DNA of 64,000 nucleotides from a virus. Its lineage: Duplodnaviria; Heunggongvirae; Uroviricota; Caudoviricetes. Made by a program: the position numbers and the translations under genes. Shown piece after piece: positions 3,053 to 14,038 of the stretch. Positions within the stretch are counted from its first letter, which is position 1, and each line of letters begins with the position of its first letter. The notes under the pieces were generated by a model. That model did no database searches, was not told the DNA's origin, and saw nothing but the letters and a program-made list of their open reading frames with translations. Location: positions 17,878-81,877 of the IMG/VR virus record IMGVR_UViG_3300028601_000028; one strand, 5' to 3'.

Positions 3053-4249
3053 ATGGCAAAGAAAAAATCAAATTCAAAAACGTTCTCGATATCACAATTA
3101 TCAGGTTTAATAGATAAAATATCAGATGAAACAGAAATAATTGTACAAGGTAATGAAGATTCTGGTTTTATTGATACTGGTGTTTATATTTTAAATGCTC
3201 TTTTTTCAAAAAGTATTTTAAATGGTGGTATTCCAGATGACAGAATAACAATATTTGCAGGTGAACCAAATACAGGTAAATCATATTTATTGTATAATAT
3301 TGCTAGAAATGCTCAAAAAAGAGGAGACTTTATAGTATTTATTGACACTGAACATTCTGTTAGTAAATCTACATTACAATCATTCGGTATTGATTCAAGT
3401 CCTGAAAAATTAAAACTTATATCTTCTAATAAAGTTGAAGATTTAAAAATATTCCTAACCAAATTTCTAGATGGTCTTAAACAAGAGAAAAAATCAGGAT
3501 CAGAAATTCCTAAAATTATAATTTTATTAGATAGTATAGGTCAATTAGCATCAGAAAAAGAAATTGAAGATGCTAAAGAAGGTAAAAACAAAGCTGATAT
3601 GACAAGAGCTAAAGCTATTAAACAATTGTTCAGAATTATTAACTCTGATTTAGGATATTTAGGAATTCCAATGGTAGCAACAAACCATACTTATCAAGAT
3701 ACTAGTTCATTTTTCCCTGTTCCAGTTATGGCAGGTGGAAAAGGAGCAGAATATTCAGCATCTACTATTATATTTTTAAGTACTGCTAAATTAAAAACTG
3801 GCAGAGAAGATGACTTAGATTTAAGTTCAACTGGTGTATTGGTTACAGCACAAGCAAAGAAAAACAGACTAGCTAAACCTAAGAAAGTTAAATTTGAAAT
3901 TGATCATAGTTATGGTACAAATCCATATAAAGGATTAGAATTTTTCTTTACTCCACAAAATTTTGAAAATTTAGGTGTAGCAAAAGGAAAATTAAACGAT
4001 AAGGGTGAGTTTGAACCAGGTGGAACAAGATGGTATATTAAACATTTAAATAAATCGGTTTTTGAAAAACAATTATTTACATCAGAAGTTTTTACGAAAG
4101 AATTATTAGAAAAATTAGAACCAATAATTTATAAATATTTTGATTACTCATCATTTGAAGAACAAGAATTATTTTTATCTAAAATGGACGAGCATGGAGA
4201 AGATTTAGATGCAGATTTTGATGATATTGATAATGATGATTTATTTTAA
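3053..4249 (+). CDS. uvsX: UvsX-type RecA-like recombinase
   Basis: Walker A GEPNTGKS. The block IDSIGQLASEKEIEDAKEGKNKADMTRAKAIKQLFRII...GIPMVATNHTY aligns closely with T4 UvsX (IDSLGNLASKKETEDAL..SDMTRAKTMKSLFRIV...IPCIAINHTY). Acidic C-tail as in UvsX. Confidence 0.85.
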   Translation: MAKKKSNSKTFSISQLSGLIDKISDETEIIVQGNEDSGFIDTGVYILNALFSKSILNGGIPDDRITIFAGEPNTGKSYLLYNIARNAQKRGDFIVFIDTEHSVSKSTLQSFGIDSSPEKLKLISSNKVEDLKIFLTKFLDGLKQEKKSGSEIPKIIILLDSIGQLASEKEIEDAKEGKNKADMTRAKAIKQLFRIINSDLGYLGIPMVATNHTYQDTSSFFPVPVMAGGKGAEYSASTIIFLSTAKLKTGREDDLDLSSTGVLVTAQAKKNRLAKPKKVKFEIDHSYGTNPYKGLEFFFTPQNFENLGVAKGKLNDKGEFEPGGTRWYIKHLNKSVFEKQLFTSEVFTKELLEKLEPIIYKYFDYSSFEEQELFLSKMDEHGEDLDADFDDIDNDDLF

Positions 4250-4270
4250 TAAAATTTTAAAAATTAAAAA

Positions 4271-4984
4271 ATGGGAGCTAATACAAATTTAGAAAAATTA
4301 TTTTTTGCCAAGATCTTAGAAGAACCTAATCAATTTTATAAAGTAGAATCAAAATACTTTGAAAATGAATTGATTAGGTTTGTATATGATGTTATTAGAG
4401 AATATTATATAAATTCAAAAGATAAAATTGTACCTAGTCCAAAACAAGTTTGGTCTATGGTAAGTTTACAAGATGATAAAAAATTAGTTTCAAAAGAAGC
4501 TTTAAAATCATTGTTTACAGAAACAACACAAGATATAACTGATGAATGGTTAGATAGATCATTTAAAGCATGGAAATCATCAAAATATACAAGAGATAAA
4601 ATTTATGAATCCATTGATATTATAAAAAACATGGATGAAGTAAATTATGACAATGTTATGGATATTGTCGGTAGATTAAAAAAGAATTTTAGTGAGATAG
4701 ATATTATATCAAATGATGATGAAGATTTAGGGGGAGATTTTGATGATCCAGAAGAACATAAACAATTGATATCATTAAGAAAAATACCGACAGGATGGTC
4801 AAATTTAGATAAAATATTAGGTGGTGGATGGGATCATGCTACTTTTAACATAATAATGGGAGAAACTAATGTGGGTAAGTGTCTTATTTTCAACACTTTA
4901 ATAAAAATTAAAAACAAAAAAACTAATAAAATCGAAAAAATAAAAATTGGTGATTTTTTTAATATGATAAAAAAATCTTCCTAA
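4271..4984 (+). CDS. replicative DnaB-like helicase (T4 gp41-type), N-terminal fragment ending in a short split-intein N-piece
   Basis: DnaB/gp41 N-domain. Walker A GETNVGK is immediately followed by Cys204 and an intein block-A-like CLIFNTLIKIKNKKTNKIEKIKIGDF, then a stop. The rest of the helicase continues at 6543 in another frame. Confidence 0.8.
   Translation: MGANTNLEKLFFAKILEEPNQFYKVESKYFENELIRFVYDVIREYYINSKDKIVPSPKQVWSMVSLQDDKKLVSKEALKSLFTETTQDITDEWLDRSFKAWKSSKYTRDKIYESIDIIKNMDEVNYDNVMDIVGRLKKNFSEIDIISNDDEDLGGDFDDPEEHKQLISLRKIPTGWSNLDKILGGGWDHATFNIIMGETNVGKCLIFNTLIKIKNKKTNKIEKIKIGDFFNMIKKSS
4880..4984 (+). mobile_element. split intein N-fragment (34 aa, atypically short) inserted in the helicase P-loop
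   Basis: Starts with Cys directly after NVGK, where T4 gp41 has NVGKS. Block A-like sequence, followed by a stop codon. Confidence 0.6.
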
Positions 4985-5019
4985 ATTGGATTCACTTATT
5001 TTTATATATAAAAGTAAAA

Positions 5020-6138
5020 ATGATTATGAAATGTAAAATTTGTAATAATGAATCTAAAGATATTAGAGGATTATCTATTCATTTAGTAAAAAAACACCAT
5101 TTTAATAAAAATGATATTAAAAATTATTATGATAAATATTTAAAAAAAGATAATGAAGGTAAATGTTATTTTTGTGGAAAAAATTCAATTTTTAAAGATT
5201 TATCTAATGGATATCATAATATATGTGATTCTAAAGAATGTTTAGGTAAAACAAGAGCAACAGGTACATATGAATTTTTAATGTATAAATATAATTTATC
5301 AAAAGATGATGCTATAAAAATGATGAATGAAAGAGCATCTGAAAGAGGCAAAAAAATTAAAAAATCATTAAATGAAAAATTTGAAAATAATAAAAATTTT
5401 TTTAAAGAAAGATCACATCAATCAATTAACTACTGGCTGAAAAGAGGATATTCTGAAGATGATGCTAAAATAAAAGTTAAGAAAGTTACTGATATGATAC
5501 ATGAAAAAACATGGAAAAAGAGAAGAGAATATCCAGAATTATATGATGATGTTAGTCCAACACAATTAAAATATTGGTTAAAAAAAGGATATAATGAAGA
5601 AGAAGCAAAAGAAAAAGTAAAAGATAGACAAAGAACTTTTACATTAGAAAAATGTATTAAAAAATATGGTGAAGACGATGGTATAGATATTTGGATAAAA
5701 AGAAATAAAAGATGGTCTAAAAAAATGAAAGATATTTTATTAAAAAATGGAAATTATAAACAAGACTCATCAAATTTAGAAAAAATTTTTATAAATGATA
5801 TTTTAAATGAAACGAATATTAATGAATATAATTGTTATATAAATAAGCAATTTATAATATTTTGTAATAGTGATTTTTATTACACTTATGATTTCAAGTA
5901 TAATAATAAAATAATAGAATTCAATGGTGATTACTGGCATTGTAATCCTATTAAATATGATATGGATTATTTTAATATGAGAAAACAAATGTATGCTAAA
6001 GATATATGGATATATGATAAATTAAAAATTCAAAAAGCTAAAAAAGAAGGATATGATGTATTAGTTATATGGGAAAGTGATTATAAGAAAAATAAAGAAA
6101 AAATTATACAAGAATGTGTAAATTTTTTAAACAAATAA
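5020..6138 (+). CDS. free-standing homing-endonuclease-like protein (Zn-finger N-terminus, Vsr/DUF559-like PD-(D/E)xK C-domain) lying between the two helicase halves
   Basis: CxxC...CxxC motifs at the N-terminus. Repeated YWLKRGYSEDDAK-type helices. C-terminal FDFKYNNKIIEFNGDYWHCNP...GYDVLVIWESDY resembles Vsr (GCFWH...VWE). Paralogous to 8903..9883 and 25733..26791. Confidence 0.7.
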   Translation: MIMKCKICNNESKDIRGLSIHLVKKHHFNKNDIKNYYDKYLKKDNEGKCYFCGKNSIFKDLSNGYHNICDSKECLGKTRATGTYEFLMYKYNLSKDDAIKMMNERASERGKKIKKSLNEKFENNKNFFKERSHQSINYWLKRGYSEDDAKIKVKKVTDMIHEKTWKKRREYPELYDDVSPTQLKYWLKKGYNEEEAKEKVKDRQRTFTLEKCIKKYGEDDGIDIWIKRNKRWSKKMKDILLKNGNYKQDSSNLEKIFINDILNETNINEYNCYINKQFIIFCNSDFYYTYDFKYNNKIIEFNGDYWHCNPIKYDMDYFNMRKQMYAKDIWIYDKLKIQKAKKEGYDVLVIWESDYKKNKEKIIQECVNFLNK

Positions 6139-6176
6139 GAGATAATATTATAAAATATAAAAACAAAATTGTATAA

Positions 6177-6542
6177 ATGATAAGTGACAATACATATAAA
6201 AAATTTATAGAAACATTTGATGTATCAGATTGGCAAATAGAAACCGATACGGGATGGGAAGATATAAAAGAAGTTGGTAAAACAATTGAATATGATGAAT
6301 GGGTAGTAAAAACAGAAGATGGTTTAGAATTAATTTGTGCGGATGAACATATTTTATTTGATAAAAATTATAATGAAATATATGTAAAAAATTTAAAAAT
6401 AGGGGATTATATTTTATCAAAAAATGGTATTTCTAAAATAAAAGAAGTATATAAAACTGATAAAAAGTCAAATATGTATGACTTGTCTTTGTCTGATGAT
6501 TCAAATCGTAGATATTATACAAATGATATTTTATCTCACAAT
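6177..6542 (+). mobile_element. split intein C-fragment (IntC) of the helicase intein
   Basis: Ends ...TNDILSHN with +1 Ser at 6543. Block B and block F/G-like motifs present. Confidence 0.6.
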
Positions 6543-7271
6543 TCAATGTGGTTACAAAATATGGCTGCTAAAATGGCAGATAGTGGATATAATGTTGTTT
6601 ACATAACATTAGAGATGGCAAAATATAAATGTATTAAGCGTTTAGGTGCAATGAGATTAAAAATTGATATTGATGAATATGATACAATAAGTAAAGATAG
6701 TACATTTATTAAAAATAAAATAAACGAATTAAAAACAATGGCATCGTCAAATAAATTATTTGATGGTGGTAAGGTTGGTAAATTATATGTTAAAAAATTT
6801 CCAACTAGTGATTGTACAGTAACAGATTTAGAAAATTATGTTAAAAAATTTCAAGAAACAAAAAATATAAAATTAGATGCAATCGTAGTAGATTACATTA
6901 ATATTATGTCAATTGAGAAAGGTTATAATTTAGACACTATGTTATATCTTAAAGGTAAACATTTAGCAGAAGGATTAAGAAGATTAGCTGATAAGTGTGA
7001 TGTTGCTGTTATTACAGCTACACAAGTTGATAAATCAGTATGGGGAGCAAATGATATTAATTTAGATGATATACCAGAAAGTAAAGCAATAGCAGAAGCA
7101 GCGGATTCTGTTTGGGCAATAATTAGAAACCCTTCTATGAAAAAAGAAAATACATATAGATTAAAAATATTAAAATTAAGAGATGGTGAACATCATGAGG
7201 AACAAGTGAAATTTGATTTTAATACTAAATATTTAACAATGGATAATGATATATTATTTGGATCAAAATAA
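6177..7271 (+). CDS. split-intein C-fragment (122 aa) fused to the C-terminal part of the gp41/DnaB-like helicase
   Basis: Intein block B-like GLELICADEHILF and terminal ILSHN. This is followed by SMWLQNMAAKMADSGYNVVYITLEMAKYKCIKRLGAMRL, which aligns with T4 gp41 S-LGLCSLAADYLQLGHNVLYISMEMAEEVCAKRIDANML, the sequence directly after the Walker A motif. Confidence 0.8.
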   Translation: MISDNTYKKFIETFDVSDWQIETDTGWEDIKEVGKTIEYDEWVVKTEDGLELICADEHILFDKNYNEIYVKNLKIGDYILSKNGISKIKEVYKTDKKSNMYDLSLSDDSNRRYYTNDILSHNSMWLQNMAAKMADSGYNVVYITLEMAKYKCIKRLGAMRLKIDIDEYDTISKDSTFIKNKINELKTMASSNKLFDGGKVGKLYVKKFPTSDCTVTDLENYVKKFQETKNIKLDAIVVDYINIMSIEKGYNLDTMLYLKGKHLAEGLRRLADKCDVAVITATQVDKSVWGANDINLDDIPESKAIAEAADSVWAIIRNPSMKKENTYRLKILKLRDGEHHEEQVKFDFNTKYLTMDNDILFGSK

Positions 7272-7287
7272 AAAATAATAAATTGAA

Positions 7288-7974
7288 ATGAGTGATGATA
7301 AAAATTACATAAATTTTGATGACGATTTAAATCAATATGATATAGATGAAGAATCAAATATTAGTAATGATAATATAGAAGAAGATAATAATATTGATGT
7401 TGATGATGATATTATAAATAATGATGATGATAATGATTTTATTGACATTGATGATGTATCTGATATAGAGGATTGTGAAAATTTTGATCTAATTTATAAA
7501 TTTAATACTAATAAACATAGGCAAGAAGGTAAACATAGATTACAAAGAGATACTATTTTTAAAGGCAAATTAGATAAAAAAGAAAATGAAGATAATATAA
7601 GTAACAGTCATATAGATAATGATTATGATAATATTAATATATTTGATATTCATAATGATAGTGATGATTATTTAAGTACAAATGACTTAACTAAAGATGT
7701 CTATGATATACTAGATAAAAATACAGATTTAGATTTTAAACAAAATAGAAGAAAACCAAATAAAGAGGTTTTTAATAATTATTATAATTTATTAATAAGA
7801 GAATTAGGATACAGATATACAAGATCAGAGATATTTGTTGAATTATCATATTATTTTACAGATAACATATTTAATATGTTTAAACTTTTAGATAAAAAAC
7901 CAGCTACATATATAATTAAAGAATTAACACAAAAAGGATTTTTAAAAAACCTTAATGGTATTAATTTTTTATAA
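7288..7974 (+). CDS. highly acidic D/N/E-rich protein with a structured C-terminal domain
   Basis: The first ~150 aa are dominated by D, N, E and I (DDDLNQYDIDEESNISNDNIEEDNNIDVDDD). The C-terminal 80 aa are non-repetitive. Confidence 0.4.
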   Translation: MSDDKNYINFDDDLNQYDIDEESNISNDNIEEDNNIDVDDDIINNDDDNDFIDIDDVSDIEDCENFDLIYKFNTNKHRQEGKHRLQRDTIFKGKLDKKENEDNISNSHIDNDYDNINIFDIHNDSDDYLSTNDLTKDVYDILDKNTDLDFKQNRRKPNKEVFNNYYNLLIRELGYRYTRSEIFVELSYYFTDNIFNMFKLLDKKPATYIIKELTQKGFLKNLNGINFL

Positions 7975-7981
7975 AAATAAA

Positions 7982-7989
7982 TATAAATA
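7982..7989 (+). promoter_or_regulatory. T4 late-promoter-like TATAAATA box about 4 nt upstream of the nrdJ start
   Basis: Exact TATAAATA octamer at 7982..7989, ahead of the ATG at 7993. Matches are expected by chance in AT-rich DNA, so this is weak. Confidence 0.2.
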
Positions 7990-7992
7990 TAA

Positions 7993-8847
7993 ATGAATAA
8001 ATACAATAGAAAAGAAGTAGAAAAAAATACATTAGATTATTTTAAAGGTGATTCTTTAGCTACTGAAGTATGGATAAATAAATATGCATTAAAAGATTCA
8101 GATGGAAATATTTATGAATTAACACCAGATGATATGCACAAAAGATTATCTAAAGAACTAAATAGAATTGAAAATAAATATCCTAATCCATTATCAGAAG
8201 ATTTAATTTATAATCTATTAAAAGATTTTAAATATATTATCCCACAAGGAGGTCCGATGTCAGGTATAGGTAATGATTTACAAATTGTTAGTTTATCAAA
8301 TTGTTTTGTGACTGGAAATGAAAGTGATAGTTATGGTGGTATATGCAGAACTGATGAACAACAAGTACAATTAATGAAAAGAAGAGGTGGTGTAGGTCAT
8401 GATTTATCACATATTAGACCAAAAGGATCACCCGTTAAAAACTCTGCACTAACATCAACAGGAGTTGTTCCTTTTATGGAAAGATATTCTAATTCAACAA
8501 GAGAAGTAGCACAAGATGGTCGTAGAGGTGCACTCATGTTAAGTTGTTTTGCACCAGATACATTCGTATTAGTTGATTATGGTTGGGATAAAATTATTAA
8601 TGTTATTAATAAAATAAAAAACGGAGAAAAAATAAAAGCATGGACACATAATGGTTTTAAAAATATAACAGATATTCAGGAATTTATTAATAGAGATGTT
8701 TATGAAATTGAATGTGAAAATGGCAAAAAGATAGTTGTAACACCAGATCACGAATTTCAAGTTAGAAATAAAAATACAAAAAAAGAATATTTAAAAGCTA
8801 TTATTGATGTTGATATAGAAAACGAAGAATTAGTATTCTTTTTTTAA
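7993..8847 (+). CDS. nrdJ: class II (adenosylcobalamin-type) ribonucleotide reductase NrdJ, N-terminal fragment ending in a split-intein N-piece
   Basis: NrdJ-like N-terminus (KYALKDSDGN..E, GGVGHDLSHIRPKGS). The extein stops at GALMLS. Cys185 then begins an intein with block A CFAPDTFVLVDYGW and block B KKIVVTPDHEF, which runs into a stop. Confidence 0.75.
   Translation: MNKYNRKEVEKNTLDYFKGDSLATEVWINKYALKDSDGNIYELTPDDMHKRLSKELNRIENKYPNPLSEDLIYNLLKDFKYIIPQGGPMSGIGNDLQIVSLSNCFVTGNESDSYGGICRTDEQQVQLMKRRGGVGHDLSHIRPKGSPVKNSALTSTGVVPFMERYSNSTREVAQDGRRGALMLSCFAPDTFVLVDYGWDKIINVINKIKNGEKIKAWTHNGFKNITDIQEFINRDVYEIECENGKKIVVTPDHEFQVRNKNTKKEYLKAIIDVDIENEELVFFF
8545..8847 (+). mobile_element. split intein N-fragment (100 aa) in nrdJ
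   Basis: Intein blocks A and B with the T..H motif. Starts with Cys and ends at a stop codon, with no C-terminal splicing motifs in this ORF. Confidence 0.6.
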
Positions 8848-8862
8848 AAAAAACAAATTCGG

Positions 8863-8896
8863 GGTGTTTTATTTTTATATATAACAATAAAACACC
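8863..8896 (+). other. stem-loop (ggtgttttatt / aataaaacacc) between the nrdJ IntN stop and the endonuclease ORF
   Basis: Perfect 11-bp inverted repeat with a 12-nt loop. It is not followed by a T-tract, so it is not a classic terminator. Confidence 0.35.
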
Positions 8897-8902
8897 TTAA
8901 AA

Positions 8903-9883
8903 ATGAAAATAAAATTAAAGAAAATTAAAGAAGACAGAATTAGAATTATCTATAAAATAGATCAATATGATATTAATTTAGATAATAAAATATTTAAAAT
9001 TAATAAAAATACATCTAATTTGAGTGCATATTTAAATAATAAAGGGGATAATTTGATTAATTTTTTAAATAAATCAATTAATAATAAATGTATAAATTGT
9101 TCAAATACAGTAACGAAAAATAGATTTGAAAGAAATAAATTCATTACGTATAAATTTTGTGATAATTGTAATAATATTGAAAATTGGAATAAATATGATA
9201 AAGTAAATTGTATAATATGTAATACTGAACTTTTTAAAAAAGATATGATATTTTCAACATGTGGAAAAGAAGAATGTAAAAATACACATAGAAATAACAT
9301 TAATAAAATAATTAAAAATACACATTGGACTAAAAAAGAAAATGTTAATGAAATTTTAAAAAAAAGAAGTGAAAAAAGATTGTCTAATGATAAAAAATTA
9401 AATAGAAAATACAAAGCATGGAATAAAGGGAAAAAGGGCATATATACAAAAGAAACAATAGAAAAAATAAGAAATTCTACAATTAAACAAATGAAAGAAG
9501 GTAAAATTAAAAAAACTAAAATTGAAATAATATTTGAAAATTTTTTAATTGAAAATGATATAAAATATGTATATTCTTTTATTTATAAAAAAAGACAATT
9601 CGATTTTTATTTAAAAGATTATAATTTAATAATTGAAATAAATGGTGATTATTGGCACGCAAATCCTAAATTTTGGGATATTTATGGTAATGATAATAAT
9701 AAAAAAAAGTTATACGAAACACAAAAAATGAAGATTAAAGATGACATAATTAAAGAGAAAATGATAGAAGATTCTAATTATAAATTTATTAAATTTTGGG
9801 AAGATGATATACATAATAATTTTTCATTAATTATAGAAACTTTAATTAAAAAATTTAATATAAAAATAAAAAATAAAAAATAA
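8903..9883 (+). CDS. free-standing homing-endonuclease-like protein (Zn-finger + Vsr/DUF559-like), between the nrdJ halves
   Basis: Multiple Cx2C Zn-binding motifs. C-terminal QFDFYLKDYNLIIEINGDYWHANPKFWD...KFIKFWEDD motif shared with 5020..6138 and 25733..26791. Its stop is only 3 nt before the IntC start at 9887, in the same frame. Confidence 0.65.
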   Translation: MKIKLKKIKEDRIRIIYKIDQYDINLDNKIFKINKNTSNLSAYLNNKGDNLINFLNKSINNKCINCSNTVTKNRFERNKFITYKFCDNCNNIENWNKYDKVNCIICNTELFKKDMIFSTCGKEECKNTHRNNINKIIKNTHWTKKENVNEILKKRSEKRLSNDKKLNRKYKAWNKGKKGIYTKETIEKIRNSTIKQMKEGKIKKTKIEIIFENFLIENDIKYVYSFIYKKRQFDFYLKDYNLIIEINGDYWHANPKFWDIYGNDNNKKKLYETQKMKIKDDIIKEKMIEDSNYKFIKFWEDDIHNNFSLIIETLIKKFNIKIKNKK

Positions 9884-9886
9884 AAA

Positions 9887-10003
9887 ATGGATAAAACTTA
9901 TAGTAAAATATTTAAAATAACAAAAAAGGGTAAAAGTAATGTTTATGATTTTACTGTTGATGAAACACATAGAATACTCGCTAATAATTTTTATACTTCA
10001 AAT
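9887..10003 (+). mobile_element. split intein C-fragment (39 aa) of the first nrdJ intein
   Basis: Block F/G-like VYDFTVDETHRILANNFYTSN followed by +1 Cys (CHVKHPD...). Confidence 0.55.
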
Positions 10004-13000
10004 TGTCATGTCAAACATCCTGACGCAGAGGATTTTATAGATGCTAAAATGACACAGGGAAAAGTTACTGGTGCTAATGTTTCTGTTAAATTGGATGACG
10101 AATTTATGAAATGTGTTATCGAAGAAAAACCATATATACAAAAATATCCAATCGATTCTGATAATCCAATTTTCACAAAAGAAATAGATGCTAAAAAATT
10201 ATGGAAAAAAATTATTTATAATGCTTGGAAATCTGCTGAACCAGGTTTGCTATTTTGGGATACTGTTATTAAAGAATCAGTACCTGATTGTTATACTGAA
10301 CATGGGTTTAAAACGGTGAGCACTAACCCCTGTGTTGTGGGTGATACTAAAATATCCGTTGCTGATGGAAGAATGGGTGTAACAATTAAAGAATTAGCAG
10401 AAGAATCAAAAGATGTACCTGTTTATTGTTTAGATAATAATGGGGAATTAGCAATTCGTATAATGAGAAATCCACGTATAACAGGTTATAATAAACAAAT
10501 TTATAAAATTACATTAGACAATGGACAATATATTAGGGTTACTGGTAATCATAAATTTAGATTAAAAAACGGAACATATATAGAAGCTAAAGATTTAAAA
10601 AATGGTGATAGTCTTGATGTTTTTTCAAAGGTTATTATAAATAATAATAAAAGAAAAAACAATTACTATACATTAGTAAATAATTCTAATTCATATCTTG
10701 AACATAGAATGGTATCAGAATTTAATAACGGTAGAAAATTAAATGAAAATGAAGTAGTTCATCATATCGATTATAATGGATTAAATAATAATATTAACAA
10801 TTTAAAAATTATGACTATTGATGAACATAATTCATTACATAGAATTGATAAATTAGGTAATAAAAATCCATATCACAGGATGTCAGATGAATGGAAATTT
10901 AATTTTGCATCAAGAAAGGGTGACACAAATAATAAATTTTGTGGTATATATAATGATGAAATTAAAGAACATTTTATAAAACTAACAAAAAAATTAAATA
11001 GAAGAATATCTAAAAAAGATTGGGTTGAATATGCTAAAGAAAACAATTTACCTCAATATTTTTCTTCTTATAGAAGAAATTACGGAGGAGATATTGTATC
11101 ATTAGCTAAATTAGTATCATTAGAATTAAATATAGATAATAATTTTGTTGATGTAGATCCTAGAATTGTAAAAACTTATAAAAAATCTTTATCAGAAGGT
11201 TATAATTCTAAAATAGATAATAATTCAGTAATAGTAGAAAAACAATGTGAACATTGTGGTGAATTATTTTGGGTAGATTATCAAAAAAGAGAAATTAGTT
11301 TTTGTTCACAAAAATGTGCAAATGTTTATATAAATACCGATAAAAATATTAAATTAAAGAGAAAAATATCTATTAATGATACATATAAACAAAAGATGAT
11401 AAACATCAAAAATAAACAAATGGATATTTTCAAAAAATTAGAATTTAATTTAAAAAGGTGTCCTAAATTAAAAGAATGGGAAAAAGAATGTAAATTAAAT
11501 AATATTCCATATAGATTAAAAACTAAATATGGTTATCAAACATTTAGTGATATTAAAAAAGAATCAGAATATTATAACCATAGAGTAATATCTATTGAGT
11601 TAGATGGATTTGAAAATGTATATAATGGAACAGTTGATGATTTTCATAATTTTTTCAGTGGTGAATTTGAAGAAACTACAAAAACAAATAATAAAAAATA
11701 TGTTTATATTAATCAATTAAACTGTGGTGAGATCCCCTTAAATGTAGGTGACTCTTGTAGATTACTGGCATTAAATTTATATTCTTATGTAGAAAACCCA
11801 TTTACAAAAGATGCAAAATTTAACTATGATTTATTTAAAGAACATGTTATTTATGCACAAAGATTTATGGATGATATTGTTGATTTAGAAATAGAAAAAA
11901 TTGATCAAATTTTAAATAAAATTGATAATGATCCAGAGCCAGAACATATTAAAAGAGTTGAAAGAGAATTGTGGAAATTGATTAAAGACAATGCAGTAAA
12001 AGGTAGAAGAACAGGATTAGGAATTACATCAGAAGGTGATATGATTGCAGCGATGGGGTTAATTTATGGCACATCAGAAGCTACTGATTTTGCAGAAAAT
12101 ATACATAAAATATTGGCTACTTATGCTTATAAATCTTCTATAATAATGGCAGAAGAAAGAGGTTCATTTACAGTATTTAATAAGGATAATGAAAAAAATA
12201 ACCCATTTGTAAATAGAGTTCTTAATTCTTTGAAAGAATTTAAAGAAAATGATATTATAGAAAAGTATAATAAAACAGGACGAAGAAATATATCATTACT
12301 TACAATTGCACCAACTGGTTCTGTTAGTATAGTTACACAAACGACATCTGGAATAGAACCAGTATTTTTACCATCTTATACTAGAAGAAGAAAAATAAAC
12401 CCAAATGATAAAAATACTAAAACATCATTTATTGATGAAGTTGGTGATCATTGGGAAGAATATAATGTATTTCATCATAAGTTTAAAACATGGGCTGAAA
12501 TAAATGGTTATGATACATCTAAACTAGAAACAATGAAACAATCCGAACTAGATGATATAATCAAAAAATCCCCATATTTTAAAGCAACATCTAACGATGT
12601 TAATTGGGTAGAAAAGGTTAGAATGCAGGGTAAAATTCAAAAATGGGTAGATCATTCTATATCTGTTACTATTAATTTACCTTCAGATGTTACAGAAGAA
12701 TTAGTATCACAAGTATATCAAACAGGGTGGGAGTCTGGATGTAAAGGAATTACTGTATATAGAGATGGTTCTAGAAGTGGTGTATTGATAACAAAAACAG
12801 ATAATAAGAAAGCAAATATTTTTCAAGAAAATAATGCACCAAAAAGACCAGAATCATTACAGTGTGATGTTTATAGATTCCAAAATAAGGGAGATAAATG
12901 GATTGGGTTTATGGGATTATTAGATAATAAACCATATGAGATATTTACAGGTCTGCAAGAAAGTGTAAATATACCTAATAATATAACAAAAGGTGAGATT

Positions 13001-13381
13001 AAAAAAGTTAAATCAGCTGAATCTGATGGACATTCTAGATATGATTTTATTTATATAGATAAAGATGGATATAAACAAGAATTTAGAGGGTTATCTAGGG
13101 CATTTAATAGAGAATTTTGGAATACAGGTAGATTGATTTCCGCAGTTCTAAGACATGGTATGCCGTTACCAAATGTTTTACAAATAATGGATAAATTAAT
13201 ATTTGATAGTGATGATGTTATAACATCATGGAAACAAGGTATTAAAAGAATTATAAAAAAATATATAAAAGAAGGAACATTAGTAAAAGGACAAACATGT
13301 GATGTATGTGGTTCATCTAATATAGTTTTTAAAGAAGGTTGCATGACTTGTATGGATTGTGGTACATCTAAATGTGAATAG
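9887..13381 (+). CDS. nrdJ: NrdJ C-terminal portion: split-intein C-fragment (39 aa) + RNR extein, itself interrupted by a second, contiguous HNH-containing intein
   Basis: Starts with an IntC ending VYDFTVDETHRILANNFYTSN|C. The extein then runs to STNP. A Cys-initiated intein follows (aa 149-612) with an HNH motif. The extein resumes with CGEIPL, the class II RNR active-site motif TNPCGEIxL. The C-terminal zinc ribbon CDVCGSS..CMTCMDCG is typical of NrdJ. Confidence 0.8.
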   Translation: MDKTYSKIFKITKKGKSNVYDFTVDETHRILANNFYTSNCHVKHPDAEDFIDAKMTQGKVTGANVSVKLDDEFMKCVIEEKPYIQKYPIDSDNPIFTKEIDAKKLWKKIIYNAWKSAEPGLLFWDTVIKESVPDCYTEHGFKTVSTNPCVVGDTKISVADGRMGVTIKELAEESKDVPVYCLDNNGELAIRIMRNPRITGYNKQIYKITLDNGQYIRVTGNHKFRLKNGTYIEAKDLKNGDSLDVFSKVIINNNKRKNNYYTLVNNSNSYLEHRMVSEFNNGRKLNENEVVHHIDYNGLNNNINNLKIMTIDEHNSLHRIDKLGNKNPYHRMSDEWKFNFASRKGDTNNKFCGIYNDEIKEHFIKLTKKLNRRISKKDWVEYAKENNLPQYFSSYRRNYGGDIVSLAKLVSLELNIDNNFVDVDPRIVKTYKKSLSEGYNSKIDNNSVIVEKQCEHCGELFWVDYQKREISFCSQKCANVYINTDKNIKLKRKISINDTYKQKMINIKNKQMDIFKKLEFNLKRCPKLKEWEKECKLNNIPYRLKTKYGYQTFSDIKKESEYYNHRVISIELDGFENVYNGTVDDFHNFFSGEFEETTKTNNKKYVYINQLNCGEIPLNVGDSCRLLALNLYSYVENPFTKDAKFNYDLFKEHVIYAQRFMDDIVDLEIEKIDQILNKIDNDPEPEHIKRVERELWKLIKDNAVKGRRTGLGITSEGDMIAAMGLIYGTSEATDFAENIHKILATYAYKSSIIMAEERGSFTVFNKDNEKNNPFVNRVLNSLKEFKENDIIEKYNKTGRRNISLLTIAPTGSVSIVTQTTSGIEPVFLPSYTRRRKINPNDKNTKTSFIDEVGDHWEEYNVFHHKFKTWAEINGYDTSKLETMKQSELDDIIKKSPYFKATSNDVNWVEKVRMQGKIQKWVDHSISVTINLPSDVTEELVSQVYQTGWESGCKGITVYRDGSRSGVLITKTDNKKANIFQENNAPKRPESLQCDVYRFQNKGDKWIGFMGLLDNKPYEIFTGLQESVNIPNNITKGEIKKVKSAESDGHSRYDFIYIDKDGYKQEFRGLSRAFNREFWNTGRLISAVLRHGMPLPNVLQIMDKLIFDSDDVITSWKQGIKRIIKKYIKEGTLVKGQTCDVCGSSNIVFKEGCMTCMDCGTSKCE
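10331..11722 (+). mobile_element. contiguous intein (464 aa) with HNH homing-endonuclease domain inserted between TNP and CGEIPL of NrdJ
   Basis: Begins CVVGDTKISVADG (block A) directly after STNP. Internal HNH motif VVHHIDYNGLNNNINNLKIMTIDEHNSLH. Ends ...YINQLN, followed by extein CGEIPLNVGDSC. Confidence 0.7.
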
Positions 13382-13386
13382 ATAAA

Positions 13387-13418
13387 AAGACTCATTTAAA
13401 TGAGTCTTTTTTATTTTA
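13387..13418 (+). terminator. rho-independent terminator after nrdJ
   Basis: Perfect palindrome aagactcattt-aaatgagtctt followed by ttttttatttt. Confidence 0.7.
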
Positions 13419-13473
13419 AAATGATTTTAGAACCATTGTTATATTATATATAATAATAAAAACATATATTAAA

Positions 13474-13677
13474 ATGGAAGAACAAATTACAATAGAACAA
13501 TTAATAGAAATTTTAGAAGATGCTAAACAAGATTATGATAAATTTTATGGCAGAAATATTAAAGCAGCGTCAACTAGACTTAGAAAAAAAATACAAGATG
13601 TTTCTAAACTAACAAAAGTAATGAGAAAACAAATAATTGATTATAAAAAGACAATTAAGAAAAAAGGGGAAATTTAA
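13474..13677 (+). CDS. small lysine-rich protein (67 aa)
   Basis: ORF with its stop codon inside the loop of the downstream terminator hairpin. Confidence 0.35.
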   Translation: MEEQITIEQLIEILEDAKQDYDKFYGRNIKAASTRLRKKIQDVSKLTKVMRKQIIDYKKTIKKKGEI

Positions 13678-13692
13678 ATTTCCCCTTTTTTT
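13661..13692. terminator. bidirectional rho-independent terminator between convergent genes
   Basis: aaaaagggg-aaatttaaattt-cccctttttt: GGGG/CCCC stem with A-run and T-run flanks. Stops of both convergent ORFs abut it. Confidence 0.75.
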
Positions 13693-14038
13693 ACATATTA
13701 AAAATATCTTTTATTACTTCTTTAAATTTATCTTTGCTTACACCCCCAACCATCATTTGTGGCTTTTCATCAACAGGTATAAATAATAAACTAGGTACAC
13801 TTTTAATCCCGAACATAGCTGATAATTCTTGCTCTTCTTCTACATCTATTTTATAAAAATTGATATTATCATATTCATTATCTAATTCATCTAAAATTGG
13901 TTGAATTTGCTTGCAAGGCTGACACCATGAAGCTGTAAATTTTAAAATTGTAGGTTTATTTCCTAAATATTTCCAATCTTGATTATTTTCAAAATCAAAT
14001 ATTTCTGTTTTAAATGTTTCTAATGTTAAATTGTTCAT
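13691..14038 (-). CDS. trx: thioredoxin
   Basis: WCQPCK active-site motif (WCxPC). Size of 115 aa and the thioredoxin fold pattern (FYKIDVEE...VPSLLF). Adjacent to the RNR gene. Confidence 0.7.
   Translation of the reverse strand: MNNLTLETFKTEIFDFENNQDWKYLGNKPTILKFTASWCQPCKQIQPILDELDNEYDNINFYKIDVEEEQELSAMFGIKSVPSLLFIPVDEKPQMMVGGVSKDKFKEVIKDIFNM

Follow-up and report, generated by a model that had tools for sequence, protein, structure and literature searches.

A phage class II ribonucleotide reductase gene with a predicted endonuclease-bearing split intein and a contiguous HNH intein

The interrupted nrdJ gene and its exteins

The stretch of DNA analysed here, referred to as the window, comprises 64,000 nucleotides (nt) of a tailed-phage genome (positions 17,878 to 81,877 of the Caudoviricetes record IMGVR_UViG_3300028601_000028) and carries nrdJ, a gene for a ribonucleotide reductase (RNR), in two open reading frames (ORFs) separated by a third, which encodes a putative homing endonuclease (Table 1). 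The first ORF joins the N-terminal segment of the enzyme, the N-extein, to what appears to be the N-terminal half of an intein (IntN), whereas the last opens with the corresponding C-terminal half (IntC) and continues through the rest of NrdJ, within which lies a second, contiguous intein carrying an HNH motif. Three insertion points in nrdJ recur in what follows, namely site a (GALMLS/C), site b (NAWK/SAEPG) and site c (STNP/C), where the slash marks the junction; in the window, sites a and c are occupied.

That the separated segments belong to one enzyme is evident from their colinearity. The Pfam ribonucleotide-reductase barrel profile is covered at positions 1-81 by ORF1 and resumes in ORF3 at 85-523, and the product obtained by removing both inteins in silico is a protein of 845 amino acids (aa), which aligns with Thermotoga maritima NrdJ (1xjk) at an E value of 1.4e-63. 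Both junctions are gapless in this alignment, the first pairing RRGALMLSCHVKHPD with RRGALMGILNINHPD (over a longer stretch, RRGALMLSCHVKHPDAEDFIDAK with RRGALMGILNINHPDIEEFIDAK) and the second pairing STNPCGEIPL with STNPCGEIGL, so that the spliced protein is predicted to contain the ligated-junction peptides GALMLSCHVK and TVSTNPCGEIPLNVGDSCR. In the chain numbering of the 1xjk alignment site a falls at I214/L215, a position which we take to lie just past specificity loop 2. The residue following the second intein, the Cys of CGEIPL, corresponds to C322, the thiyl-radical cysteine; C134 and C333, the redox pair, have their equivalents in Cys104 of SLSNCF on the N-extein (nt 8302-8304) and in GDSCRL on extein 3. 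The equivalents of C134, C322 and C333 (SNCF, NPCGE, which straddles site c, and DSCRL) are accordingly placed on three different extein segments, and an active enzyme would therefore need both splicing reactions. The barrel, the three catalytic cysteines and the match at 1e-63 to the B12-dependent structures 1xjk/1xje, together with the B12-dependent RNR annotation carried by related phage genes, support assignment of the locus to the class II RNRs (nrdJ), with adenosylcobalamin dependence predicted from homology.

The break in the gene is no artefact of assembly, since the ORF1 protein including its stop recurs as exact copies on 15 contigs (the six places shown being six different metagenome samples) and since the contig L003 matches the window at 100% identity across 18.8 kb (related contigs and loci are designated here by L numbers and related proteins by P numbers). 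IntN terminates in ENEELVFFF, after which a spacer of 55 nt leads to the endonuclease ORF; at the other end the endonuclease ORF and IntC meet in the sequence TAA (9881-9883) AAA ATG (9887), with a gap of 3 nt and in one shared frame.

Table 1. Features of the nrdJ locus in window coordinates
Feature	Position	Strand	Length or evidence
ORF1: N-extein and IntN	7993..8847	+	284 aa
NrdJ N-extein, aa 1-184, C-terminal GALMLS	7993..8544	+	Ribonuc_red_lgC positions 1-81, E 2.8e-15; gapless against 1xjk
IntN, 100 aa (8545..8844), then TAA stop (8845-8847)	8545..8847	+	family profile; sub-threshold Pfam Hint and Intein_splicing
RNA hairpin before endonuclease start	8861..8898	+	free energy (dG) -13.5 kcal/mol, z -3.6
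Endonuclease ORF: putative free-standing homing endonuclease, Vsr-like/EDxHD	8903..9883	+	326 aa; profile, AlphaFold (AF2) model, Foldseek
ORF3: IntC and remaining NrdJ, including second intein	9887..13381	+	1164 aa
IntC, 39 aa, C-terminal NNFYTSN, followed by C	9887..10003	+	aligned with fused Npu DnaE; +1 Cys 10004-10006
NrdJ extein 2, spliced aa 185-293 (109 aa), CHVKHPDAEDF to KTVSTNP	10004..10330	+	gapless against 1xjk
Contiguous HNH intein, 464 aa, CVVGDTK to YINQLN	10331..11722	+	Pfam Intein_splicing, HNH_3
NrdJ extein 3 (552 aa), N-terminal CGEIPL, C-terminal Cys-rich tail	11723..13381	+	aligned with 1xjk/1xje
Intrinsic-terminator-like hairpin and T run just past NrdJ stop	13384..13419	+	terminator scan

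Intein halves, endonuclease and their expression

Judged by its motifs, the element at site a is confirmed as a HINT-domain intein. IntN begins with Cys1 within CFAPDTF (block A) and contains the T..H motif within VTPDH (block B), while IntC supplies block F (VYDFTVDETH) and block G (RILANNFYTSN), ending in Asn139, and the +1 nucleophile follows. The C-terminal tail of IntN is acidic (DVDIENEELVFFF) and the N-terminus of IntC is basic (MDKTYSKIFKITKKGKS). As a single fused sequence, IntN plus IntC gives matches that are weak, yet exclusively to inteins, and in alignment with fused Npu DnaE the break coincides with the canonical DnaE split point. The strong scores are due to the use of a family profile (A2) of 11 site-a alleles, six split and five contiguous: all of the 29 PDB sequences it matched are inteins, with DnaE inteins best (1.9e-9 to 7e-9). 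Throughout these 11 alleles, which share 31-81% identity, C1, T66, H69, D121, H128, N139 and the +1 Cys (C140) are invariant. The split point maps to the variable linker of the contiguous alleles, and the variable linker of inteins is the usual seat of nested endonucleases.

Comparison between alleles points to a working element. The +1 residue is Cys in every intein-bearing allele and Ile or Leu in the empty ones, and in comparisons of phages with 42-80% extein identity IntN retains 57-66% and IntC 64-85% identity. Rough ratios of nonsynonymous to synonymous substitution (dN/dS, Nei-Gojobori), calculated at 22% GC with synonymous sites near saturation, are 0.10-0.40 for IntN, 0.12-0.67 for IntC, 0.32-0.67 for the endonuclease and 0.13-0.30 for the exteins. 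Because the halves are conserved, the ratios low and the +1 Cys confined to intein-bearing alleles, the split intein is probably functional.

The protein encoded between the halves combines an N-terminal half with Cys-rich CxxC modules, which probably bind DNA, with a C-terminal Vsr-like/EDxHD nuclease domain (about aa 195-320; D234, E245, H252 and D281). A word-indexed search returned 97 homologues, and in an alignment of 42 sequences W173, E208, D234, G248, W251, H252 and D281 are invariant, with E245 conserved in at least 90%. The profile of this alignment (A1) matches in the PDB both I-Bth0305I (3r3p, 'mobile intron protein'; 1.1e-7) and Escherichia coli Vsr (1cw0; 8e-7); D234, H252 and D281 align with D51, H69 and D97 of Vsr, and E245 with F62, and the D/E/H/D pattern corresponds to the composite EDxHD motif (PMC3239194). 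The AF2 model, with a mean predicted local distance difference test score of 93, retrieves 3r3p first in Foldseek (template modelling score 0.76 on the target), followed by the Vsr structures 1cw0 and 1vsr. Profile and fold search were needed for this link, as phmmer with the single sequence against PDB sequences found nothing relevant and the Pfam Vsr match in the middle ORF is sub-threshold. Taken together, the evidence supports membership in the EDxHD/Vsr-like homing endonucleases, for which DNA cleavage is predicted. Homologues with as little as about 46% identity occupy the same NrdJ site, and a more distant one (P0073) splits a gene for IMPDH, one of the host types recorded by Dassa et al. 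(2009; PMC2677866).

In the contiguous intein at site c, blocks A (CVVGDTK), B (VTGNH) and F (VYNGTVDDFHNFF) are recognisable, as is the HNH motif VVHHIDYNGLNNNINNLKIMTIDEHNSLH at about nt 10700-10831. Within ORF3 the Pfam profiles Intein_splicing (58.9 bits, cut-off 35.8, E 6.5e-16) and HNH_3 (28.6 bits, cut-off 24.8, E 1.1e-6) both exceed their thresholds, and HNH families of PHROG match the same intein. Among the positions that contiguous inteins occupy in RNRs, the one immediately N-terminal of the thiyl-radical Cys ranks first in frequency (Dassa et al. 2009, PMC2677866).

An earlier note on this DNA, made from the letters alone, had described an NrdJ with a split intein at the conventional position, a Vsr-like endonuclease ORF between the halves and a contiguous 464-aa HNH intein lodged exactly between STNP and CGEIPL. 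This anatomy is borne out in all its coordinates and lengths: the exteins are colinear by the gapless 1xjk alignment and by the barrel profile, which resumes at 85 after ending at 81 over the split; blocks A, B, F and G are found across the two halves of the split intein and A, B and F in the HNH intein; alignment puts the break at the canonical DnaE point; profile, model and Foldseek agree on the endonuclease; and empty alleles, described below, exist for both sites.

How the three ORFs may be expressed is suggested by the sequences between them. Shortly before the endonuclease gene lies a hairpin with a stem (GGGGUGUUUUAUU/AAUAAAACACCUU) of 13 pairs, two of them G-U, and three inner pairs, the loop holding TATATATAAC; it ends five bases before the endonuclease ATG, and none of 200 shuffled sequences folded as well. 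Comparable hairpins with a ATATATAA loop precede the endonuclease in L009, L012, L002 and the second cassette of L015 (L015b), where the stem takes in the start codon itself. Such structures were found in the endonuclease 5' untranslated regions of 15 of 16 loci by Dassa et al. (2009; PMC2677866), who connect them with the way endonuclease translation is repressed in T4-like phages (the T4/Aeh1 precedent) and note a late-promoter element in the hairpin loop. By analogy, the hairpin in the window likely represses translation of the endonuclease, and its loop may possibly harbour an internal promoter. The promoter idea stays at the level of analogy because TATATATAA, the motif in the loop, shows no enrichment over the window (28 matches, 23 expected), and it was accordingly rejected as a genome-wide promoter signal. 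The same motif also stands 5' of the endonuclease gene in the neighbouring helicase locus (5002-5011), where the fold is weaker (z -2.1). A scan of the window for sigma-70-like promoters (47 found against 55 in shuffles) is uninformative at 22% GC. On the plus strand from 7700 onwards the sole terminator-like site up to 13384-13419 is the hairpin following ORF3, so that ORF1, the endonuclease gene and ORF3 probably share one transcript.

From the TAA AAA ATG junction the earlier note had proposed that synthesis of IntC-NrdJ is translationally coupled to that of the endonuclease. In favour of coupling one may cite the spacing of 3 nt, the junctions of relatives, which overlap by 4-20 nt (L012, L015, L017) or lie 15 nt apart, and the overlaps of 6-69 bp in 15 loci of Dassa et al. 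(2009; PMC2677866). Yet Shine-Dalgarno-like motifs precede none of the 43 long ORFs of the window, all of which have A-rich leaders, and the leader of IntC is like the others, making independent initiation the default; moreover, since the hairpin would mask the endonuclease start, coupling would be counter-productive, tying an enzyme presumably needed during phage DNA replication to a repressed gene. Finally, in strain variants the neighbouring helicase gene has precisely lost its endonuclease gene but still has its split intein, so that ORFs of the IntC type can be expressed alone. The proposal is not supported, and we regard coupling as unlikely.

The transcriptional linkage of the parts also bears on another explanation, in which IntN and IntC are translated as a single contiguous intein because an RNA intron contains the endonuclease ORF or recoding skips it. 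EDxHD endonucleases do occur in group I introns, as does I-Bth0305I in recA, and IntN, the endonuclease and IntC probably share a transcript. Against this, the Rfam matches at E <= 1 within 7000-14000 amount to four chance ones below threshold near 13345-13694, so that known RNAs, group I and group II introns included, were rejected for that interval; the spacers from the IntN stop to the endonuclease start in relatives measure only 3 to 64 nt, and with IntC overlaps of up to 20 nt there is no space for a conserved intron core; and every split allele retains its own stop past IntN and its own ATG for IntC. We therefore consider an intron or recoding highly improbable, and the locus is treated below as a gene broken by a split intein.

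Relatives, empty alleles and the weight of the evidence

The cassette is not peculiar to the window. With an orthologous endonuclease at the same NrdJ site it occurs in at least five diverged phage loci (L009, L012, L015, L017, L025), and a HMMER scan over 1.84 billion representative proteins, clustered at the 50%-identity level, yielded about 24 clusters split at site a and 5 further clusters contiguous there, the latter being mini-inteins of 146-153 aa. Word-indexed searching of proteins was uninformative, as IntN together with 115 aa of the preceding extein gave just 3 matches. The extent of interruption varies: L012 and L017 are interrupted at site a only, L009 adds a mini-intein at site c, and L025 combines site a with an HNH intein exactly as the window does. 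In L015 (nrdJ at 4107..10960; also L016) three interruptions, namely the site-a split with its endonuclease, a homologous HNH intein at NP/C and a second split intein at APTG/C...HN/S enclosing a 356-aa endonuclease, would leave the enzyme to be assembled from three polypeptides, while L002 (LR756500, a 462-kb phage) has the APTG split only. In the metagenomic RNR proteins P0103 and P0113 two inteins stand only 10-11 residues apart, a LAGLIDADG-type intein ending ...HN/S at G/SRRGA and then the site-a IntN (SGRRGALMMVIS/CFEG). A candidate decayed IntC allele in L011 (1295..1460) was set aside; it differs from L009 by one A in a run of eight, and its loss of frame is most likely a sequencing or assembly error.

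Uninterrupted counterparts exist for both insertions. In L001, L019, L020 and L021 nrdJ is uninterrupted throughout. In L023 (90% aa identity) site a is empty and reads GALMLS/ISVKHPD; compared with the joined exteins of the window, its DNA differs only in the 9 nt at the junction (empty-site sequence ...CTCATGTTATCGATAAGTGTCAAACAT...) and is identical over the adjoining 42 nt upstream and 37 nt downstream. These 9 nt form a perfect palindrome, TTATCGATAA, centred on the insertion point, a suggestive fit to the target of a dimeric EDxHD enzyme; the palindrome is not present in the other empty alleles. Site c of the same gene (L023, 6001..9779) bears a split intein directly before the thiyl Cys (STNP/CLTADT... 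and ...LLVHN/CGEIPL), with a 252-aa ORF between its halves that has no Pfam match and is possibly another type of endonuclease.

The site-c insertion is polymorphic among strains closely related to the window. In the variants L004-L008, about 97.5-98.7% identical to the window at the nucleotide level over long aligned blocks, STNPCGEIPL is intact and the HNH intein is absent at exactly that position; instead, an intein of 484-486 aa with a LAGLIDADG endonuclease lies at site b, 98 nt upstream of site c (L004 11082..14636; window 10232/10233). Differences between the exteins of the two haplotypes are clustered, with 21 in nt 200-450 (all synonymous), one in nt 0-200 and none in nt 450-700, a pattern that looks like co-conversion from recent homing or like recombination; L007 is itself a recombinant that matches the window exactly as far as 10232 and follows the other haplotype beyond that point. 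Contigs with both site-b and site-c inteins, or with neither, were absent among the six examined. It is possible, though we hold it only tentatively and at well below even odds, that the HNH and LAGLIDADG inteins exclude one another within one phage population, the homing of either co-converting the other away above a fixed split-intein cassette.

Several observations weigh against the overall interpretation. Splicing and DNA cleavage at the nrdJ locus are predicted from conservation; as a single sequence the split intein scores weakly, with 27.3 bits for Pfam Hint (cut-off 29.7) and an E value of 0.018 in phmmer against the PDB; the dN/dS ratios carry the reservations given with them; the motif in the hairpin loop is not enriched; and the IntN-endonuclease-IntC cassette is 100% identical between haplotypes, so that it offers no signal of selection within the population. 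The second intein, moreover, ends QLN/C, with Leu in place of the penultimate His that is common, though not obligatory, in inteins, and its loop between blocks F and G is extended. Since homologous inteins, which occur at NP/C in many RNRs, end in LN, RN, MN, KN, AN or EN, and since the copy in L015 ends INQLN/C, the missing His is a trait of the family, and this shared unusual C-terminus argues for function without proving it.

A rival explanation is one of decay, in which the intein parts no longer splice and the two pieces of NrdJ come together non-covalently by way of what were once intein halves, or in which the gene is a pseudogene. A precedent is the endonuclease-split NrdA of Aeromonas phage Aeh1, with interaction domains derived from a mobile element (PMC3045599), and the sub-threshold Hint scores of single sequences leave room for such an outcome here. 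Decay is difficult to reconcile with the pattern across alleles. All splicing residues (C1, T..H, the D and H of block F, the terminal N and the +1 C) are invariant in the 11 alleles; the +1 Cys, restricted to intein-bearing alleles, is sensible only as a nucleophile; conservation of the intein halves equals or exceeds that of the exteins; and contiguous site-a alleles exist which must splice if their host enzyme is to work. Decay thus appears improbable to us, and we assign a probability of roughly 0.88 to the interpretation of nrdJ as a gene broken by a split intein of canonical split position, with an endonuclease gene between the halves, and carrying in addition a contiguous HNH intein at the thiyl Cys.

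Known systems, neighbouring genes and implications

The layout belongs to the 'fractured genes' that Dassa et al. (2009; PMC2677866) described with NrdJ and NrdA among the hosts, here at a different insertion point in NrdJ. As in their loci (GOS NrdJ-1, NrdJ-2 and NrdA), a free-standing endonuclease gene, of the Vsr-like rather than the GIY-YIG type among the two known from fractured genes, separates the intein halves and shares their strand, a hairpin precedes its start and its 3' end abuts IntC, and the lengths of IntN and IntC fall within the reported 88-105 and 33-54 aa. The position of the break relative to the thiyl Cys differs: in the window it lies some 110 residues N-terminal, in the GOS NrdJ loci one residue C-terminal and in the NrdA loci directly N-terminal of that Cys. 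The +1 nucleophile at site a in the window is Cys, unlike the Ser of GOS NrdJ-1; a gap of 3 nt replaces the overlap of endonuclease and IntC, frequent but not defining (15 of 27 loci); and a second, contiguous intein is present. In the literature, nothing beyond Dassa et al. (2009) was found on an NrdJ split at site a; intein site catalogues such as InBase fell outside that search. The rarity of the layout implied by the earlier note was nevertheless overstated, fractured genes having been known since 2009 and the same or richer combinations being present in L025 and L015.

The individual parts of the locus also have known counterparts. The endonuclease shares with I-Bth0305I (3r3p; PMC3239194) the nuclease fold, the catalytic residues and a multidomain layout with an N-terminal part that here probably binds DNA, but its nuclease domain is only about 19-20% identical, its N-terminus has CxxC modules, and it is free-standing between intein halves whereas I-Bth0305I is encoded in a group I intron of a phage recA. 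The split intein resembles the Npu and Ssp DnaE inteins (4kl5, 2keq, 1zd7), its best matches among solved structures, in split position, in Cys1 and Cys+1, in a terminal ...SN without penultimate His and in the pairing of an acidic IntN with a basic IntC; the genes for the DnaE halves, however, stand at distant genomic positions and enclose no endonuclease, and both host protein and lineage are different. The second intein, like other contiguous RNR inteins, lies directly N-terminal of the radical Cys; it differs in having an HNH domain in place of the commoner LAGLIDADG type, in its penultimate Leu and in its AT-rich (22% GC), uncultured phage host. Several inteins of different kinds in one gene are likewise familiar: works cited in PMC2874743, Liu et al. 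(2003) among them, record four inteins in the RNR of Trichodesmium and both split and contiguous inteins in its dnaE.

The genomic surroundings offer further observations. Just upstream, a gene for a DnaB/gp41-like helicase (4271..7271) is also fractured, with an atypical split: the ORF at 4271..4984 ends GETNVGK/CLIFNT..., with an IntN of about 34 aa directly past Walker A; a middle ORF at 5020..6138 (372 aa) has the motif EFNGDYWH and is Vsr-like in appearance with no Pfam match; and the ORF at 6177..7271 starts with an IntC of about 121 aa, which contains block B (ICADEH) and ends ILSHN/S. In L004-L006 a segment of 1168 bp carrying the endonuclease (window 4985..6152) is precisely absent from this gene and both intein parts are kept. 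Directly after nrdJ come genes for an Hc1 histone-like protein and a thioredoxin (13474..13677 and 13691..14038 (-)), and the thioredoxin could plausibly serve to reduce the RNR. A gene of the TnpB/IS605 OrfB type (window about 17.5-18.8 kb; L003 17581..18816) follows some 4 kb downstream of nrdJ, its position varying among the strain variants. The genome has 22% GC, and TAA is the stop in 36 of the 43 long ORFs (at least 150 aa) of the window; at the DNA level its closest relatives in the database are huge phages, uncultured and 462-735 kb in size (LR745206, LR756500-3).

In the scheme that we infer, a HINT-type intein at GALMLS/C would have been split, at the linker where endonucleases usually insert, by a free-standing EDxHD/Vsr-like gene, so that two polypeptides are made, N-extein-IntN (284 aa) and IntC with the rest of NrdJ (1164 aa). 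The acidic tail of IntN and the basic head of IntC would associate and fold into a HINT domain, which would splice in trans and leave Cys where uninterrupted homologues have Ile or Leu. The HNH intein would splice in cis, with the thiyl-radical Cys doubling as its +1 nucleophile. During co-infection each endonuclease would cleave alleles lacking an insertion at its own site, the intein then spreading by gene conversion, while the hairpin probably keeps the free-standing endonuclease translationally quiet on read-through mRNA.

The locus is, in essence, a colonisation of a phage nrdJ by two independent selfish elements. It leaves the understanding of inteins unchanged, being a well-documented case of a known kind that will not surprise specialists, yet it provides a natural example of an essential enzyme heavily colonised by such elements and nonetheless retained, its catalytic cysteines residing on separate extein segments that would be joined only after one trans- and one cis-splicing reaction. 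Its relatives, ranging from uninterrupted genes through a contiguous mini-intein and a split intein with endonuclease to as many as three interruptions, amount to a series of snapshots for the 'gene-breaking' model of how split inteins arose. The site-a family (100 + 39 aa, Cys/Cys; about 24 clusters) represents an uncharacterised, widespread pool of natural split inteins and a candidate orthogonal trans-splicing tool. At the level of strains, the polymorphism offers material for studies of intein homing and competition in uncultured phages, and the mutual exclusion of the site-b and site-c inteins would, if true, be a natural case of competition between one intein and another.

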